Shown: positions 3,001 to 10,164 of the stretch, in pieces | Layout: each line of letters starts with the position of its first letter | How positions within the stretch are numbered: position 1 is the first letter of the stretch | From: Escherichia phage vB_EcoP-22664BS1 | Length of the DNA stretch: 39,133 bases | Sequence record: MZ234009.1 | Strand: one strand, 5' to 3' | Position numbers and translations under genes: made by a program | Notes under the pieces: model-generated | Told to the model about the DNA's origin: nothing | Seen by the model: the letters and a program-made list of their open reading frames with translations, nothing else | Database searches by the model: none

Positions 3001-3303
3001 CTTCCGCGCTCACCTACCGAGAAGACGGAGAAGCCAATCGCCTTTGGTGCTGCTTCCAGTGGTCCGGTAATGAATGTGGTCGGCAACTTCCTTGAGCAGG
3101 TCCCGGCTTTCGGCTATGCTGCTAACGTTGGTGCTACGGCTTACAACTTGGCGGGATACCTCAAGGCTGATACCCGTGTCAACGAGCGAGACTACATGAC
3201 CGGGATGTATAACACGTTCCGTGAACTTGTACCGAATGACCCGATTACCCAGAAGTTGCTGCTTGGAACGTTTGAGGAGCAGGGCATCCACATCAAGGAC
3301 TAA
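1..3303 (+). CDS. 16: Internal virion protein D (gp16), C-terminal 1100 aa; 5' partial at window start, continues in frame from 38549..39133 if the sequence is circular
   Basis: ORF track 1..3303; colinear similarity to recalled T7 gp16 from about residue 215 (STFFGF...GVDPLSYVP...SPTGMQSGASGK...GTYVPHVY...NPTMI); position before gene 17. Confidence 0.9.
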   Translation: MQEREERSTWFGFGAATEAEVKNSMVGVAIRAGQTEDSLDVIGDVFNPTRWNNHKWSREELDQIRNAGVLPQYYGVITGGSPQNLTELINFALENQKLDQEKAKAGTGAQLAAGVIGAGVDPLTYVPIAGQVGKGGKLVNKMFTVAAQSGALAGASEIARTSVAGGDAHVAEAIMGGALFGGGMTAIGDAIGKALGKSTNEFAGPATRLEARETARNVDGQDLSRMPIREGEETFSHQGVKFADVPNEPGSVRLEDGSILIGENPLNPKTRKVFDEVIEPERAAAGVNLGGLTEIGLKLLRSENPEIRGVAADLVRSPTGMQSGASGKIGTTASDVFERLRAVDHRFYNDIDDAVTEALKDPYFQTAFWRDSGAFRQDIYQRVSMAIEDGSGNLKAELTPGELKVYDLLKNQFDAKREMMENPAMFGRPDAQSIFPGSRFKGTYVPHVYSNQMKELYIKELGSPEALQEAIKKSWLTSYASRPEVKKRVDEELLEADPTLTPEGLAAAVDKYANDKAYGISHTEQFERSSVMEENINGLVGLENNSFLEARNLFDSDMSIVLPNGQTFSVNNLREWDMDKIVPAYNRRVNGDIAIMAGTGKTTKDMKDLVETLMNKAGDDGKLKGEVSTLRDTLKILTGRARRDGADDAAFATVMRTMTDLSFFAKNAYMGVQNLTEIGGMLARGNVRAMLHGVPIFRDLAFRNKKVGASEIKDLHNVIFGKELDDSIRPSKQDVIDRLRSYSDLGRGTATALGTAKYYTGELAVRSPFTKVLNGTTNYLLDAGRQGFLSDIVEHSLTGSKRKFDDRWLKTAGISDEQWKGIKSLIRESVTRGPDGKYTIKDKKAFSQDPRAMDLWRMGDTIADETLLRPHKLSNMDAKAYGPIAKTVLQFKNFVIKSINGRTMRTFYNATKNNRAMDAALSTVMSMGLAGMYYMAQAHIKAYAMQDGRDREYLKQALNPTMIGYAALSRSSHLGGPLGVANILGGIAGYEDTKMLRSSILPRSPTEKTEKPIAFGAASSGPVMNVVGNFLEQVPAFGYAANVGATAYNLAGYLKADTRVNERDYMTGMYNTFRELVPNDPITQKLLLGTFEEQGIHIKD

Positions 3304-3321
3304 ACTATCACTATAGGAAAC
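3299..3321 (+). promoter_or_regulatory. Phage RNAP promoter (phi17-like), variant with A at +3
   Basis: taaactatcactatagg matches the 11-copy promoter family; 45 nt upstream of gene 17 start. Confidence 0.65.
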
Positions 3322-3367
3322 TGGAGGCGCTACCATAGGTCTCCGTTTAAATCACAAAGGAGGCATA

Positions 3368-5548
3368 ATGTCCACGATTACACAATTCCCTTCAGGAAAC
3401 ACTCAGTACAGGATAGAGTTCGACTACCTAGCCAGAACGTTTGTTGTTGTTACGCTGGTGAATAGCTCTAACCCTACCCTGAACCGTGTACTGGAAGTTG
3501 GTCGAGATTACCGATTCCTTAATCCAACGATGATTGAGATGTTGGCTGACCAATCAGGTTTCGACATCGTTCGTATTCACCGTCAGACTGGAACTGACTT
3601 AGTGGTAGACTTCAGGAATGGCTCAGTGTTGACAGCTAGTGACCTGACCAATTCAGAGCTTCAGGCTATCCATATTGCAGAAGAAGGTCGAGACCAAACG
3701 GTTGACTTAGCGAAGGAATATGCCGATGCTGCTGGTAGCTCTGCTGGCAACGCTAAGGATAGCGAGGACGAAGCACGCCGAATCGCTGCGAGTATCAAGG
3801 CAGCTGGTAAAATTGGCTATATTACCCGTCGCTCCTTCGAGAAAGGCTTCAACGTTACAACAGGGAACGAGGTCCTGCTATGGGAAGAGGATGGTGCTTA
3901 TTACCGCTGGGATGGTACGCTTCCAAAGAACGTTCCCGCTGGTTCAACTCCTGAATCATCTGGTGGTATTGGGCTGAGTGCGTGGGTTAGTGTTGGTGAT
4001 GCGTCACTTAGAGCAAACCTGGCTGATAGTGATGGCGCTAAATACATAGGCAGTGGAGAAAGGACATTACTTGAGCACAACAATGATGTTTTGCACTCAA
4101 AAGACTTTCCAACACTGCAGGCAGCTATAGATGCATCTTTGCAAAAAAATGATCTACTGGTGTCTCCTGGCAATTATACTGAAAAAGTTACTATTGGAAA
4201 CGCGCAATTAAAAGGTGTTGGCGGGGCCACGGTACTAAAAACTCCGGCAGACTTTACAAACACTGTTCAGGTTAATTTAGCTACACCTCATTGGCAATTC
4301 CGCCATAGTGGTGGTTTTGCTATAGATGGTTCCGGGACAACCGGGGCCGTAGGTATTAGTTTTGACCCGTCAGACCAATATTCCGGACGTCATAATTTTA
4401 GTGATGTATACATCCACAACATCAACAAGGCCATTCAGAAGCCTTCCGGGAACATCGGCAATACTTGGAGAAATATTGGGATATCTACGTGTGATTGGGG
4501 GTATTACGCGATTAGTGGCTCAGAGATGCATTGCGGGGCCGATACCCTCTACAATATCCACTTCGATGGCATCTCCACCTATGCAGTCTATCTAGACGGC
4601 ACTGTCGATAATGGCGGGGGGGGCGCATGGTGGCTTAAAGACTCCATTATTGAGGCTTCCGGAGGTGGCGGGATATACTTAAAAAGTAAATCGGGCGACT
4701 GTCCTACATCTCCATGCGGGGTATCCAATATATGGATGGAAGCGATCGCAACATCACCGGCTGTTCAGGTAGACGGCGTGGCGCAAAAACCGCGAGTTCT
4801 CAAGTTGGTAGACACAGCGATATTCTTTGCTGAGTATTCTTATCTCAACAACATCGAGCTATCCAACTCCAACTTAGTAACTTATGGTTGCCGTTTTGAC
4901 AACGCTGATGGCAATCAGGATATTGTCGTGGATGCACAAAGTACCATTGTAGCCCATGACGTGTATTTAAACGGCAGTTCTGGAAAGGACGTTATTGTGG
5001 AGTCCGTAGCATCGCAATCTGCAACGATAGCTGCCACAAACTTATCTCTGAGGGGCAACTTAACAAGAGGGAGAGTATTTAATACGCCGACAGGGAATAA
5101 ATTAATGGCTATCACATTTGACTCAGGTAGCCATAATTTTTCTGGCAGCGGCACCGTTAACGGTTCGACTGTATCTGACGGACTTCACGCCGCTACATGT
5201 ACCGAATTTTCATTCCCCGGAGCCGGTTTATATGAAATGGTAGCGACAAGAACAACCATTACATCCGGTAGATGGTACGTGTGGGGAGTTAACTCACGCC
5301 TACAATCTGGCTCGGCGGATATTAGTATAACGTCAGGTATTACCATGGGTAGTGTTTACACAAAGCCGGGGGAGTGGATTAGCACTTTCGGTGTAGGAAA
5401 GGCATCTACCACTGGCACTGTAGCGCTATACGTTTCCACAGGAGGAGGTTCGGGAGCTACGGTCAGATTCAGTGACTTTTTCATCGCTGAGTTTACGACG
5501 CAAGCTCAGGCTTTAGCTTTCGCCAATTCAAGGATGTCGTTATCATAA
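3368..5548 (+). CDS. 17: Tail fibre / tailspike (gp17): T7-like N-terminal anchor domain plus non-T7 C-terminal beta-helix-like domain
   Basis: RBS aaggagg before ATG; N-terminal about 150 aa closely match T7 gp17 (MSTITQFPSGNTQYRIEFDYL...FLNP...); C-terminal about 570 aa Gly/Ser/Asn/Thr-rich with repetitive short strands. Confidence 0.85.
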   Translation: MSTITQFPSGNTQYRIEFDYLARTFVVVTLVNSSNPTLNRVLEVGRDYRFLNPTMIEMLADQSGFDIVRIHRQTGTDLVVDFRNGSVLTASDLTNSELQAIHIAEEGRDQTVDLAKEYADAAGSSAGNAKDSEDEARRIAASIKAAGKIGYITRRSFEKGFNVTTGNEVLLWEEDGAYYRWDGTLPKNVPAGSTPESSGGIGLSAWVSVGDASLRANLADSDGAKYIGSGERTLLEHNNDVLHSKDFPTLQAAIDASLQKNDLLVSPGNYTEKVTIGNAQLKGVGGATVLKTPADFTNTVQVNLATPHWQFRHSGGFAIDGSGTTGAVGISFDPSDQYSGRHNFSDVYIHNINKAIQKPSGNIGNTWRNIGISTCDWGYYAISGSEMHCGADTLYNIHFDGISTYAVYLDGTVDNGGGGAWWLKDSIIEASGGGGIYLKSKSGDCPTSPCGVSNIWMEAIATSPAVQVDGVAQKPRVLKLVDTAIFFAEYSYLNNIELSNSNLVTYGCRFDNADGNQDIVVDAQSTIVAHDVYLNGSSGKDVIVESVASQSATIAATNLSLRGNLTRGRVFNTPTGNKLMAITFDSGSHNFSGSGTVNGSTVSDGLHAATCTEFSFPGAGLYEMVATRTTITSGRWYVWGVNSRLQSGSADISITSGITMGSVYTKPGEWISTFGVGKASTTGTVALYVSTGGGSGATVRFSDFFIAEFTTQAQALAFANSRMSLS

Positions 5549-5692
5549 AAACAACCTCAGCCGAATCGGGTTATTTATCATCAGAACGGTATTGAATCAT
5601 CGAAGGTTGTGGAGGTAGAGGCTAACTACACGTTGACCAACGTATGATAACAACTTTGGGTCACGGACGACCCGCTTTAAACTGGAGGTTTT

Positions 5693-5887
5693 ATGATTGA
5701 GTTAGACTTCAAGAATGAGGTCCTCAAAGCCTCGCCTATCGTCGGGACCGCTGCGGCTGATGGTGCCAGTCGGTTCTTCTTTGGGCTAACGCTCAACGAA
5801 TGGTTCTACGTCGCTGCTATCGCGTACACCGTGGTGCAGATTGGCGTCCTAATTTACAAGACGATTAAGAGCGGAGGTAAGACATGA
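5693..5887 (+). CDS. 17.5: Class II holin (gp17.5)
   Basis: Matches recalled T7 gp17.5 (FFGL.LNEWFYVAAIAYTVVQIG); RBS ggagg; hydrophobic segment. Confidence 0.85.
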   Translation: MIELDFKNEVLKASPIVGTAAADGASRFFFGLTLNEWFYVAAIAYTVVQIGVLIYKTIKSGGKT

Positions 5888-6707: not shown

Positions 6708-8467
6708 GTAAAGACTTAGTGGCGCGTCAGGCGCTAATGACTGCACGTATGAAGTCAGACTTCGTGTTCTTCCTGTTCGTCCTGTGGAAAGCTCTGTCGC
6801 TCCCAGTCCCTACTCGCTGTCAGATTGACATGGCGAAGAAACTATCGGCTGGGGACAACAGGCGCTTCATCCTACAGGCGTTCCGTGGTATAGGGAAGTC
6901 CTTCATTACGTGTGCCTTCGTTGTCTGGAAGCTATGGAACAACCCAGACTTGAAGTTCATGATTGTGTCGGCCTCAAAGGAACGAGCCGATGCTAACTCC
7001 ATCTTCATCAAGCGAATCATCGACCTCATGCCTCAGCTTCAGGAACTCAAACCTAAGCAGGGTCAGCGAGATGCGGTTATCAGCTTCGACGTTGGACCGG
7101 CTAAGCCAGACCACTCACCTTCGGTTAAGTCCGTTGGTATCACTGGTCAGTTGACTGGTAGTCGTGCTGACATCCTGATTGCCGATGACGTGGAGGTTCC
7201 GAACAACTCAGCGACTCAGGCTGCACGAGACCGTCTATCAGAGCTTGTGAAAGAGTTCGACGCTATCCTGAAGCCGGGAGGTACGATCATCTATCTGGGT
7301 ACTCCTCAGAACGAGATGACACTGTATCGTGAGCTGGAAGGTCGTGGGTACACCACTACTATCTGGCCCGCTCGTTATCCACGCGACAGGAAGGACTGGC
7401 AGTCTTACGGTGACCGTCTGGCACCGATGCTTCAGGTAGAGCTTGAAGAGGACCCTGAGTCCTTCTACTGGCGTCCGACTGATGAAGTACGCTTCGATGA
7501 TACGGACCTGAAGGAGCGTGAGCTGTCCTACGGTAAAGCTGGCTTCGCTCTACAGTTCATGCTTAACCCGAACCTGAGTGATGCTGAGAAGTATCCTCTT
7601 AAGCTCCGTGACCTTATCGTAGCCGACTTGGACCCAGCGTCCAGCCCAATGGTCTACCAATGGTTGCCAAACCCTCAGAACAAGCGTGAGGACGTTCCTA
7701 ACGTGGGACTCATGGGTGACTCGTACCACACGTATCAGACTGTAGGTTCTGCCTTCAGCTCATACACCCAGAAGATTCTGGTCATTGACCCTAGTGGTCG
7801 TGGTAAGGATGAAACTGGTTATGCGGTACTGTATCAGCTCAACGGCTACATCTTCGCTATGGAAGTAGGTGGTATGCGTGGTGGCTATGAAGACTCTACT
7901 CTGGAAGCACTGGCTAAGATTGGTCGTAAGTGGAAGGTCAACGAATACGTCATTGAGGGTAACTTCGGTGATGGTATGTACCTTGAGCTATTCAAGCCTG
8001 TAGCGGCCCGTATCCATCCTGCTGCTGTAACCGAAGTGAAGAGTAAGGGTCAGAAAGAACTCCGCATCTGTGACGTTCTTGAGCCTATCATGGGGTCTCA
8101 CCGACTTATCGTCAACGCTGCTGCTATCGTCCAAGACTATCAGACAGCCTCTGACAAGGATGGTGTTCGTAACCCTATCTACTCTCTCTTCTACCAGATG
8201 ACACGTATCTCTCGTGAACGTGGAGCCTTGGCACACGATGACCGACTTGATGCGCTGGCTATAGGTGTACAGTTCTTCGTTGAGTCTATGGCTAAGGATG
8301 CCAACAAGGGAGAACGTGAAGTCACTGAGGAGTGGCTGGAGGAACAGATGGAGAACCCACGGAAAGGCTTCGAGTCCATCCACACTGAGTTCTGGGACAA
8401 TGGGGTCCGGGTAACTCACAATACGGACGACGAGCTTGGACTAGGGTCATACGTTACGTTCCACTAG
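6704..8467 (+). CDS. 19: Terminase large subunit (gp19), probable TTG start
   Basis: Strong colinear similarity to T7 gp19 ([21 protein letters not shown]...[18 protein letters not shown]...); RBS aaggagg 6 nt before TTG. Confidence 0.95.
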
Positions 8468-8476
8468 CTGAATGAA

Positions 8477-8513
8477 TAACTATAGGTGAAAGCTGCATGA
8501 ATAAGCAGGTAGT
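8477..8513 (+). other. Perfect 10-bp inverted repeat (aactataggt / acctatagtt) forming a potential hairpin just downstream of gene 19
   Basis: Read directly from sequence; no downstream U-tract. Confidence 0.4.
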
Positions 8514-8561
8514 AACCTATAGTTACTACCAGTCTAACATACTGTTTTACAAGGAGTTTGG

Positions 8562-8584
8562 ACTTAACTATCACTATAGGGAAG
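8562..8584 (+). promoter_or_regulatory. Phage RNAP promoter near right genome end (phiOR-like)
   Basis: acttaactatcactatagggaag matches promoter family. Confidence 0.65.
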
Positions 8585-8764
8585 ACCCCCGGTTACTTAT
8601 AGTATTACTGTAGTGAATATACATATGCAGACTTTATGCAAGACCTTAGGAGGCAGACTCCGAGTTATTACCTAAGGCTTGCACCGATGGAAGGAGGGTG
8701 ATATTAATCATAATCCCTCCAATACAGATAGTCACCGACCATAGATACAGGAGGTATGTAGCAT

Positions 8765-8923
8765 ATGGCAAAGACCAAAGCTGTACTTAAAGCTCTGGCG
8801 ACCAATCGAGCTACATACAGGTTTCTTGCTGCTGTTCTACTTGCTGCTGGCGTTACTGCTGGAAGTCAGTGGGTCGGGTGGGTCGAGACTCTCGTATGTA
8901 CTCTGGTCTCTCAGTGTAATTAA
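8765..8923 (+). CDS. Small hydrophobic protein (52 aa), gene 19.5 position
   Basis: ATG preceded by aggagg; ORF below the 60-aa track cutoff, translated by hand (MAKTKAVLKALATNRATYRFLAAVLLAAGVTAGSQWVGWVETLVCTLVSQCN). Confidence 0.4.
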   Translation: MAKTKAVLKALATNRATYRFLAAVLLAAGVTAGSQWVGWVETLVCTLVSQCN

Positions 8924-9085
8924 CGCAATCATGGTAACGATTCATGAGCGGAAGACCTAAGGTCAGTACGTGGATAAAGACTCACTATACTGACCTTAGC
9001 TACTGTAGTCAAGGACTTTAGGTAACACCTTAAGAGAAGCTCACTTAGGGTCATCCTACTTATTGGTCTATCCTAGTGTCGCCTG

Positions 9086-9130
9086 ACCTACGGTCCTTGA
9101 CCTACAGTGGCTGTGGCCTACAGTAGTGAC
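9086..9130 (+). repeat. Short direct repeats (cctacRgt x3) at inferred right genome end
   Basis: cctacggt...cctacagt...cctacagt seen in sequence. Confidence 0.5.
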
Positions 9131-9163
9131 GATGAGTTTTGGACCAAAAGTTTGAGACCACAT

Positions 9164-9350
9164 CTCACACTTCAAGAACCTCAAGTCTCCCCATAGGTCC
9201 TCTTTAAGTCCAGACCAAAGGCCCTACCACAGTCTATCATAAGGTTAGACCGATGGTCCAGACTTCAGGTCAACGATAGGTCTAGGCTATGGCTTAGGGA
9301 AGGACGATAGGTTGGGACTATGGGTCTGTCTTTGAGTCTCTATCTGTATC
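9164..9350 (+). repeat. Approximate terminal repeat / genome-end region (single collapsed copy); boundaries estimated
   Basis: tctcacacttcaagaacctcaagtctccccatagg resembles the T7 left end (TCTCACAGTGTACGGACCTAAAGTTCCCCCATAGG); followed by gtctgtctttgagtctctatctgt like the end of the T7 terminal repeat. Confidence 0.45.
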
Positions 9351-9351
9351 A

Positions 9352-9452
9352 GACCTTGAGTCACTACCTACAGTCTAACTACCTACAGTCTAACTACCTA
9401 CAGTCATCGACCATCGGTAATGCCGCTACCTACAGTCATCGACCTACAGTTA
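9352..9452 (+). repeat. Array of short direct repeats (ctaactacctacagt; at least 5 copies of cctacagt) inside the left end
   Basis: Seen directly; analogous position to the CCTAAAG repeat array next to the T7 terminal repeat. Confidence 0.6.
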
Positions 9453-9561
9453 ATAGACACAAGGCTATAGACTTAAGGTCTAAGACATGTTAGTCAAAGA
9501 CTATATCCTCTTACACCATGGGGCCGACGATAGCTTAATCAATATTATTTCGAATTACCTA

Positions 9562-9590
9562 TTGACTATAGGTCCAGACTATGGCCTAAT
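9562..9590 (+). promoter_or_regulatory. Candidate host sigma70 early promoter (A1-like): TTGACT, 17-bp spacer, CCTAAT
   Basis: -35 perfect, -10 weak; position about 400 bp from inferred left end. Confidence 0.3.
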
Positions 9591-9701
9591 AGCTTCCGTC
9601 AACACGACACGGCAACAACCGGATAGTGAAGACGCCGGTCCGGTCCGGTTAAGTAGTCAGCCTGTAAGACATACGAACAACAGGCAACCGACAGAAAGTA
9701 G

Positions 9702-9731
9702 TTGACAAGCAGTAACGATAAGATGTAAGAT
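9702..9731 (+). promoter_or_regulatory. Candidate host sigma70 early promoter (A3-like): TTGACA, 18-bp spacer, TAAGAT
   Basis: Strong resemblance to recalled T7 A3 promoter region including downstream gtaccacat and ctctttaacaatctgg. Confidence 0.55.
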
Positions 9732-9850
9732 GTACCACATCGAAACAACGGTGAGTCCCAACACTGAAACGGGATAGCACGGCGACGACAGCCAACGCGA
9801 ATGCTCTTTAACAATCTGGATAAACTCTTAATGTGCGCCGATAGCGACTA

Positions 9851-9902
9851 ACTACAGGGTCTTTGAGTCTACATCTGAAGGCCCTGACTGATAGTCACTA
9901 AC
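9851..9902 (+). promoter_or_regulatory. Early-region conserved element (actacagg...ggcctgactgatagtcactaac), putative RNase III processing site
   Basis: One of four related copies, each preceding an early gene. Confidence 0.35.
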
Positions 9903-9909
9903 TTAAAGG

Positions 9910-10164
9910 ATGGACACTATGAAACACTTAAGCACAATCACTAATCGCAATGAAGTATTCGTGAACACTAAAGGTTATGCGTGGATTCAGCTTAAAGAGA
10001 TGACAGGAGCGCGTCACCGTGTGGTAGTGCGCAAGGTATCAAGCAAGCAGTTCAGCAACTACAGCGTCGATACTGTGCGTATAGACAACGAGACATACCT
10101 GATAGACTCGCAGATAACCGTGAGTCCTACAGTGGGCGTCTCAGCTCCTTATTTCGCTAACTGA
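9910..10164 (+). CDS. Early protein, unknown function (84 aa)
   Basis: ORF track; RBS aaggatgg; first gene after host promoters. Confidence 0.5.
   Translation: MDTMKHLSTITNRNEVFVNTKGYAWIQLKEMTGARHRVVVRKVSSKQFSNYSVDTVRIDNETYLIDSQITVSPTVGVSAPYFAN

Follow-up and report, generated by a model that had tools for sequence, protein, structure and literature searches.

Gene 17 of Escherichia phage vB_EcoP-22664BS1 lies within a 39,133-nt stretch of DNA (sequence record MZ234009.1), which was analyzed as a whole and is called the window here. The phage is a Kayfunavirus belonging to the LM33_P1 group, and the gene encodes its tailspike, or receptor-binding protein. Its placement is that seen in LM33_P1 and T7, the gene order being gp16 (internal virion protein), gp17, holin (at 5693), and small terminase. 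A promoter-like core for a T7-type phage RNA polymerase follows immediately after the gp16 stop codon, upstream of gene 17, and T7 has an equivalent site, promoter phi17, between its genes 16 and 17. Scanned by consensus, the surroundings of gene 17 gave no more terminator or sigma-70 promoter hits than shuffled sequence did. The product matches PHROG 27367 ("tail fiber protein") over its full length (1333.7 bits, aa 1-726 versus profile positions 1-736), and the gene shares 99.8% nucleotide identity with that of LM33_P1 gp17, the two proteins differing at three residues (A136S, G166W, and A177D), all located before residue 178. Gene 17 is an ordinary type of gene that has been described before, and its protein is essentially published as LM33_P1 gp17.

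Table 1. Features of gene 17 and its flanks, in window coordinates
Feature	Position	Strand	Basis
T7-type phage RNA polymerase promoter-like core (ATCACTATAGGAAAC)	3299..3322	+	Read from sequence
Shine-Dalgarno AAGGAGG, 4 nt before ATG	3357..3363	+	Read from sequence
Gene 17, tailspike/receptor-binding protein, 726 aa	3368..5548	+	ORF, ATG start
T7 gp17-type N-terminal tail-attachment (anchor) domain, aa ~6-115	3383..3712	+	Pfam, PDB, BLASTP
Ala/Glu/Asp-rich linker, aa ~116-150	3713..3817	+	Position between the Pfam hits
Tail_spike_N domain (PF18668), aa 151-211	3818..4000	+	Pfam
Conserved inter-module linker DNA (3935-4015) and 5' crossover zone (~4005-4030, aa ~213-222)	3935..4030	+	
Receptor-binding module (RBD), aa 215-726	4010..5545	+	AF2; occurrence behind four anchors
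Right-handed parallel beta-helix, aa ~262-599 (approximate boundaries)	4151..5164	+	Carries conserved polar ladder
C-terminal jelly-roll beta-sandwich, CBM-like, aa ~600-726	5165..5545	+	
3' crossover zone, intergenic DNA	5549..5605	+	Sequence comparison with Golestan and IMEP24

The protein consists of four parts: a T7 gp17-type anchor, a short linker, a Tail_spike_N domain, and a receptor-binding module. The anchor belongs to Phage_T7_tail (PF03906; 59.8 bits for aa 10-115 against a curated cut-off of 25.2) and matches the solved T7 gp17 (7boz) over aa 6-116 (3.7e-16). BLASTP against T7 gp17 aligns 223 residues at 30% identity (E 3e-18), with real similarity confined to about aa 6-112. The original prediction of ∼150 residues closely matching T7 gp17 is thus right about the homology but too generous in extent and closeness; aa 151-211 form a separate Tail_spike_N domain. 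Its further claim, that the protein is unrelated to the T7 fiber beyond about residue 220, is confirmed by BLASTP, which yields no significant alignment past ∼aa 112.

The Tail_spike_N assignment is well above threshold (71.1 bits against a curated cut-off of 25, 8e-20), and the domain sits between anchor and module. PDB sequence matches to TSP1, TSP3, and TSP4 of CBA120 and to other proteins cover aa 145-233. This domain, which is common to many unrelated tailspikes, had been missed by the original prediction. The sole Pfam match in the Ala/Glu/Asp-rich linker is a sub-threshold and spurious LEA_4 hit, and the linker is presumed to be helical. Residues 1-224 correspond almost one to one with chain A of 9vvr (1.3e-131), a tail spike whose solved structure comprises 18 chains; such a number, with a near-identical N terminus, is compatible with six trimers. 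By analogy with T7 gp17 and 9vvr, trimers of gp17 would be attached to the tail via the T7-type anchor, with the linker and Tail_spike_N connecting it to the exchangeable module.

An AF2 model of the module is all-beta and confident (pLDDT 88.7, pTM 0.85). The central part of the protein adopts the beta-helix fold of the pectin-lyase-like tailspike class, and Foldseek searches with the module model returned CBA120 TSP4, K2-2 TSP, and Sf6 TSP at 1e-7. The beta-helix carries a conserved polar ladder formed by R341, K358, N362, N365, H388, E429, and E458. Searches of the module and 30 relatives against Pfam gave no family at E<=1, and the family assignment thus rests on the fold. The whole protein and a 30-sequence family profile, compared with PDB sequences, found solved relatives for the N-terminal 233 residues only; the module itself gave marginal matches to its N-terminal cap and otherwise no solved relative. 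Pfam detected neither a Peptidase_S74 chaperone nor a sialidase family in the gene 17 product. The C terminus is a CBM-like beta-sandwich where endosialidase-type tailspikes have the Peptidase_S74 chaperone, and this domain, which closes the module, had been overlooked in the original prediction.

The sequence character described beforehand is borne out: Gly, Asn, Ser, and Thr make up 38.1% of aa 220-726 compared with a mean of 23.6% over 12 further large ORFs in the window, the quoted motif GNYTEKVTIGNAQLKGVGGATVLK is present at aa 268-291, and there is a GGGG at aa 416 and another at aa 432. The predicted fold differs from that of the T7 fiber and a shift in base composition is present, so neither of the two outcomes named beforehand as refuting the proposal came about. 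The overall proposal of a T7-like anchor joined to an unrelated beta-helix, probably a depolymerase-type, host-range module, is supported accordingly.

Gene 17 is a recombinational mosaic, the module of which has been swapped with other phage lineages. On sequence comparison, homology across phage families, including 86-89% nucleotide identity of the module DNA (window 4044-5541) to siphovirus tailspike genes, is the strong evidence for this exchange. The same RBD is found behind four anchors: T7_tail plus Tail_spike_N in gene 17; Tail_spike_N alone in 661-aa Kagunavirus proteins (90-92% amino acid identity over the module); the Head_binding domain of P22 in proteins of 644 aa (80% amino acid identity) from a P22-like prophage beside an integrase in an E. 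coli chromosome; and a fourth anchor in the Kuravirus-like ES17 and myPSH phages (module identity 64%). A single prophage copy was found. It lies on a contig of 35 kb assembled from a sequencing run, its flank shows 100% identity with several E. coli chromosomes, and SRR14303836 is among the assemblies that carry it. When 5,426 complete E. coli genomes were searched with the module DNA by blastn in distant mode, no match was returned.

Both junctions can be located by comparison with relatives. Identity to gene 17 of Kayfunavirus IMEP24 exceeds 93% until ∼4005 and is about 45% thereafter, and that to Kagunavirus Golestan gp30 climbs from ∼4012-4040. At the 3' end, similarity to Golestan stops at the stop codon and similarity to IMEP24 is back at ∼5605. 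The 81-nt inter-module linker segment recurs in 526 phage records at 75-92% identity. These include T7-like phages and 40-46-kb siphoviruses of Salmonella as well as ∼158-kb myoviruses, probably Kuttervirus, in which tail spike genes are annotated. The module was exchanged by crossover in this conserved linker and in the intergenic DNA past the stop codon. The general mechanism of modular tailspike exchange in coliphages has been described (PMC10408124); conceptually nothing here is new, with such exchange in the literature and the protein published.

Base composition had been put forward as a sign of horizontal acquisition. The shift exists on calculation but is modest, with 46.5% GC in 4020-5548 compared with 50.2% in the whole window (-2.0 SD of same-size windows, 4.4% of which are equally low), and the lowest GC in the window lies elsewhere (44.5% at about 8400-10000). 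The whole gene is affected rather than the C-terminal part alone, with GC3 values of 0.449 for the anchor and 0.431 for the C-terminal part, compared with 0.48-0.63 in the other large ORFs. Because the genus-conserved anchor has the same bias, AT-richness is weak evidence and was rejected as proof of transfer; acquisition is supported instead by the homology across phage families.

We consider it quite probable that, taken as a whole, gp17 is best explained as a conserved-anchor tailspike whose module binds and hydrolyzes the O25b O-antigen and sets host range. The likely substrate is this O-antigen rather than capsule. LM33_P1 is reported, in a paper that summarizes earlier work on it (PMC5388864), to lyse O25b strains belonging to ST131 and ST69. 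The Kayfunaviruses 101136BS1 and 101118UKE1 (RBD 99-99.6% identical to the gene 17 module) and the Kagunavirus 22664BS2 (90%) have O25b-positive isolation hosts, and 22664BS2 and the 39,133-bp Kayfunavirus 22664BS1 were isolated on one strain, DSM22664 (PMC8614997). The O25B repeat unit is built from Glc, Rha, Rha2Ac, and GlcNAc only and has no uronic acid (PMC8260533), which favors hydrolysis over beta-elimination. A point against the reading as a whole is that none of the glycosidase families in Pfam matches the module. A discordant entry is vB_EcoP_LNA5 (RBD 99% identical), for which the rough strain K-12 MG1655 is listed as host; if true, O-antigen would not be strictly required. A literature search on phage LNA5 gave nothing useful on this entry.

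E458 is invariant (100%) among 126 homologs at 22-45% identity, E429 is retained in 88% of them, and the two residues are spaced 29 positions apart. A separation of roughly one helix rung is likewise seen between the catalytic carboxylates of the P22, Sf6, and HK620 tailspikes. Judging from the sequence spacing and the DSSP string, both glutamates would point into a single groove, where they are the candidate acid/base pair. The module would bind the O25b O-antigen of E. coli ST131 and ST69 and cut it hydrolytically along the groove lined by the polar ladder. Cleavage would in turn open a path across the LPS layer by which the virion could reach the outer membrane, and the module would determine host range.

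The module family comprises 1,331 cluster representatives at E<=1e-3 and has neither a Pfam model nor a relative solved that can be found by sequence. It is tempting, if rather doubtful, to regard the module as the first accessible member of an uncharacterized glycoside-hydrolase family that cuts O25b with a Glu-Glu pair (E429/E458) and perhaps also binds heparan sulfate or mucin. If this were true, one domain would both recognize the host and position an ST131-specific phage on the gut mucosa.

Alternatively, the module could bind glycans without glycosidic cleavage, either as a pure adhesin, possibly also for mucosal glycans, or as an esterase acting on the rhamnose 2-O-acetyl group of O25b. 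The ES17 tail fiber, with its 64% identical RBD, bound heparan sulfate and mucin, binding alone being detected and cleavage of bacterial polysaccharide not demonstrated; a weak "pectinesterase" domain match was reported for it as well (PMC7885116). Each O25b repeat unit does contain one O-acetyl group (PMC8260533), and our profile search gave a marginal match to the pectinesterase 8tne (E 0.54, 48 residues). However, no family member matches Pfam Pectinesterase at E<=1, and we rejected the pectinesterase idea. The CE8 esterase site is an Asp-Asp-Gln-Arg set, whereas the strictly conserved carboxylates of the module are the two glutamates, and the module does not fall into CE8. The strong conservation of the polar ladder over the 126 divergent homologs suggests catalysis rather than serotype-specific binding. 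We thus regard a non-cleaving module as improbable.

It is more improbable still that the module is a capsule (K-antigen) depolymerase, like the endosialidase of the Kayfunavirus type phage K1F or a K5 lyase, and not an O-antigen enzyme. Capsule enzymes do occur on the same anchor in other Kayfunavirus gp17 proteins (for example, the K1F endosialidase and vB_EcoP_F), LSB-1 gp17 is annotated as "lyase", and the ES17 homolog has been likened to K5 lyase (PMC7885116). Fold similarity, however, does not discriminate between substrates. ST131 strains have several different K types, which counts against a capsule enzyme. The host range of LM33_P1 is reported to track the O25b serotype in two sequence types, and the module-carrying phages listed in PMC8614997 were all isolated on O25b-positive hosts. 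That the C-terminal part is a diverged T7-type fiber with a coiled-coil shaft and tip domain, and no module was swapped, would fit the shared gene position and homologous N terminus but is practically out of the question, being refuted by the loss of similarity to T7 gp17 in BLASTP, by the confident model resembling beta-helix tailspikes, and by the nucleotide identity to siphovirus genes.

With an O25b-hydrolyzing tailspike as the preferred reading, the module would decide which E. coli strains die, namely those of the pandemic, multidrug-resistant O25b:H4-ST131 clone, and is a candidate O25b-specific enzyme or detection reagent. Because it works on T7-like, sipho-type, Kuravirus-like, and P22-like virions and is flanked by a widely conserved linker, it offers a ready-made cassette with which therapeutic phages can be retargeted.

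Comparison with known tailspikes and fibers places gene 17 as follows. T7 gp17 has a homologous tail-attachment domain, the same gene position, and a phi17-type promoter upstream, but the rest of it beyond the anchor, a coiled-coil shaft with a small domain at the tip, shows no similarity. The K1F gp17 endosialidase shares the anchor and linker architecture, with 87% identity across 68 nt of linker DNA. Its module, in contrast, is a sialidase of the beta-propeller type that also has a stalk and, at the C terminus, a chaperone domain that is cleaved off. The O-antigen beta-helix tailspikes of P22, Sf6, HK620, and CBA120 (TSP2 and TSP4) share 9-14% sequence identity with the gene 17 helix and have a different substrate. 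The similarity of the ES17 tail fiber, from a 75-kb Kuravirus-like phage that also infects ST131 (PMC7885116), extends across the full length of the module, but its anchor and phage family are different. The Kagunavirus tailspikes (Golestan gp30, phiEc3/phiEc4, and 22664BS2) carry the same module from ∼4044 to the stop codon (90-92% amino acid and 86-89% nucleotide identity) and, as in gene 17, a Tail_spike_N domain, yet they have another anchor lacking T7_tail, a siphovirus tail, and an unrelated genome. Closest is gp17 of the O25b-specific Kayfunavirus LM33_P1 (YP_009324518.1, tail fiber), which is the same gene at the same genomic position with a receptor-binding module of 100% amino acid identity; the differences are without substance, and vB_EcoP-22664BS1 is another isolate of the LM33_P1 group.

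Gene 17 is an open reading frame with an ATG start, present exactly as the original prediction gave it and preceded at a distance of 4 bases by the ribosome-binding site AAGGAGG. On its 5' side lies the gene for gp16, an internal virion protein; on the 3' side come those for the holin, the small terminase, an Rz-like spanin and the large terminase, an order that agrees with that of T7. A T7-type promoter-like core lies upstream of the gene (see table), at a position equal to that of promoter phi17 in T7. The gene 17 protein is already known: it is gp17 of the published Kayfunavirus LM33_P1 in all but three residues (A136S, G166W, and A177D), the two being identical from residue 178 onward. The DNA identity is 99.8% with LM33_P1 and 99-99.7% with eight more Kayfunavirus records.

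Features of gene 17 and its receptor-binding module (aa ~215-726), with fold matches and relatives of the module
Feature	Position	Details
Promoter-like core, T7-type phage RNA polymerase	3299-3322	ATCACTATAGGAAAC; directly 3' of gp16 stop codon
Gene 17 ORF	3368..5548 (+)	726 codons
Phage_T7_tail (anchor)	aa 10-115	Pfam 59.8 bits, cut-off 25.2
Tail_spike_N	aa 151-211	Pfam 71.1 bits, cut-off 25
Peptide quoted in the prediction	aa 268-291	GNYTEKVTIGNAQLKGVGGATVLK
GGGG runs (n=2)	aa 416, aa 432	
Last 81 bases of anchor	3935-4015	75-92% identical in 526 phage records
Exchanged cassette	about 4010-5600	
Gene 17-holin spacer	5549-5692	144 nt, also in LM33_P1
Gene 17-holin spacer, IMEP24	5185-5557	about 370 nt
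Lowest GC of window	about 8400-10000	about 44.5%, 1.5-kb windows
Prophage copy, Logan assembly SRR14303836	8001-9935	
ORF in MZ417522.1	2465-5215	916 aa
Fold match: Geobacillus virus E2 ORF18 (putative pectin lyase)		27.2
Fold match: CBA120 TSP2		25.7
Fold match: Kp32gp38		24.9
Fold match: CBA120 TSP4		22.7
Fold match: K5 lyase		21.5
Fold match: HK620 tailspike		20.7
Module, LM33_P1-type Kayfunaviruses		96-100% aa identity
Module, Golestan-type Kagunaviruses		90-92%
Module, P22-like prophage, behind P22-type Head_binding domain		80%
Module, siphovirus fFiEco03		65%
Module, ES17, myPSH1131, myPSH2311 (68-76-kb podoviruses)		64%
Module, Bp4, PD38, IMEP24		about 40%
Module, a Pseudoalteromonas phage		31%

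The N-terminal part was predicted to match T7 gp17 closely over its first ~150 residues. The homology is real (E 3e-18 by direct comparison, 223 aligned residues), but closeness and extent were overstated, as the identity is 30% and meaningful similarity is confined to about aa 6-112. The Tail_spike_N domain had not been part of the prediction. The solved tail spike chain 9vvr_A matches aa 1-224 almost residue for residue (1.3e-131), and a PDB sequence search returned no solved structure beyond about aa 233.

The C-terminal 512 residues matched no Pfam family at E<=1, and a family profile searched against solved structures found no relative of the module, only marginal matches to N-terminal cap regions. 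We thus rely on an AlphaFold2 model of aa 215-726, made from a 30-sequence alignment, which is confident (mean pLDDT 88.7, pTM 0.85) and all-beta. All six fold matches are right-handed parallel beta-helices, and Foldseek returned CBA120 TSP4 and the K2-2 tailspike (about 1e-7), the Sf6 tailspike (9e-6), and carbohydrate-binding modules over about 140 residues. Model and comparisons confirm the beta-helix that had been proposed. A T7-like fiber fold is excluded by the fold of the model. The C-terminal part is indeed rich in Gly/Asn/Ser/Thr (38.1% in aa 220-726 versus a mean of 23.6% in 12 other large window ORFs).

Identity with the Kayfunavirus IMEP24 exceeds 93% to about window position 4005. 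From there it drops to about 45%, and it is high again only from about 5605, in the spacer 5' of the holin gene. Identity with the tailspike gene of the Kagunavirus siphovirus Golestan rises from about 4012-4040, stays at 80-100% to the stop codon and is absent thereafter. These switches delimit the exchanged cassette. The 5' crossover falls at aa ~213-222, immediately C-terminal to Tail_spike_N, and since the spacer to the holin gene differs in length between the window and IMEP24, the 3' end includes variable non-coding DNA. The last 81 bases of the anchor recur, among others, in ~158-kb myoviruses whose annotation lists tail spike genes (probably Kuttervirus; a genome has as many as three copies), in 40-46-kb Salmonella siphoviruses and in T7-like Salmonella phages. 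The paper quoted on the conserved linker does not cover O25.

Horizontal acquisition had been proposed partly from AT-richness. On calculation G+C is lower in 4020-5548 (46.5% versus 50.2% for the whole window), but modestly so: 2.0 SD under the mean of same-size windows, 4.4% of which are equally low. The N-terminal part, conserved across the genus, has a GC3 of 0.449 and the C-terminal part one of 0.431, compared with 0.48-0.63 in other large window ORFs. Gene 17, anchor included, thus has the lowest third-position GC (0.43-0.45) of the large ORFs examined, and low GC is a property of the gene rather than of the swapped module alone. Horizontal exchange of the module is well supported by cross-family homology, not by base composition. 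The GC minimum of the window lies outside gene 17, with AT skew strongly positive near 9400-10000; in this circularly permuted T7-like record it presumably corresponds to the early region or the end of the genome.

Among 1.84 billion cluster representatives, a profile search returned 1,331 relatives of the module at E<=1e-3. When 5,426 complete E. coli genomes were searched by blastn, no copy of the module was found. The P22-like prophage with the 80% identical copy lies beside an integrase gene at the yfdC-mlaA-fadL locus of an E. coli chromosome, and it also encodes gp7, gp20-like, gp16, and Ant-type proteins. MZ417522.1 ('UNVERIFIED: Mycolicibacterium phage J1'; 24.9 kb, labelled Microviridae, host given as Mycolicibacterium) contains an ORF with 71% identity to the module in its C-terminal part; a labelling or assembly error in this record is probable.

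LM33_P1, whose host E. coli LM33 belongs to the O25b:H4-ST131 complex, is reported to lyse strains of both ST131 and ST69 that are O25b (PMC5388864); the host strain is given in PMC5434335. The isolation strain of vB_EcoP-22664BS1, DSM22664, is O25b-positive and also yielded the Kagunavirus 22664BS2; the Kayfunaviruses 101136BS1 and 101118UKE1 likewise come from O25b-positive strains (PMC8614997). The module is 99-99.6% identical in these two Kayfunaviruses and 90% in 22664BS2. Since these two unrelated virions have only module and host in common, the O25b determinant is likely to be the module. The O25B repeat unit, ->4)[beta-Glc-(1->6)][alpha-Rha-(1->3)]alpha-Glc-(1->3)-alpha-Rha2Ac-(1->3)-beta-GlcNAc-(1-> (PMC8260533), contains no uronic acid; cleavage would therefore be expected to be hydrolytic, a lyase mechanism being unlikely. 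The Kayfunavirus vB_EcoP_LNA5 (MZ311861.1) has a 99% identical module, and its record names rough E. coli K-12 MG1655 as host, which is at odds with the O25b O-antigen being strictly required.

The module could instead be a binder only: for the ES17 protein, binding to heparan sulfate and mucin was the sole activity demonstrated (PMC7885116). A capsule depolymerase is possible and compatible with the fold alone, but fits poorly with the serotype-linked host range. An esterase is conceivable, but the "pectinesterase" hint of PMC7885116 found no support in our Pfam, profile, or fold searches.

For hydrolysis of O25b, conservation suggests where the chemistry may reside. Among 126 homologues (22-45% identity) the top conserved polar residues are R341, K358, N362, N365, H388, E429 (88%), and E458 (100%), with conserved polar residues repeating about every rung. 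The spacing of Glu-429 and Glu-458, 29 residues, is comparable to that of the catalytic carboxylates in the P22, Sf6, and HK620 tailspikes. We propose these two glutamates as a candidate acid/base pair, which would act in the putative O25b hydrolysis.

Neither enzymology nor a structure of the module, nor the candidate catalytic residues, nor the prophage copy with a P22-type anchor appears to be covered by the literature consulted; these are increments rather than surprises, the finding as a whole being known. That Golestan, myPSH1131, myPSH2311, and ES17 share the module has been noted before (PMC7885116). The gene 17 protein belongs to the described class in which an N-terminal anchor and a conserved linker carry an exchangeable beta-helix receptor-binding domain.
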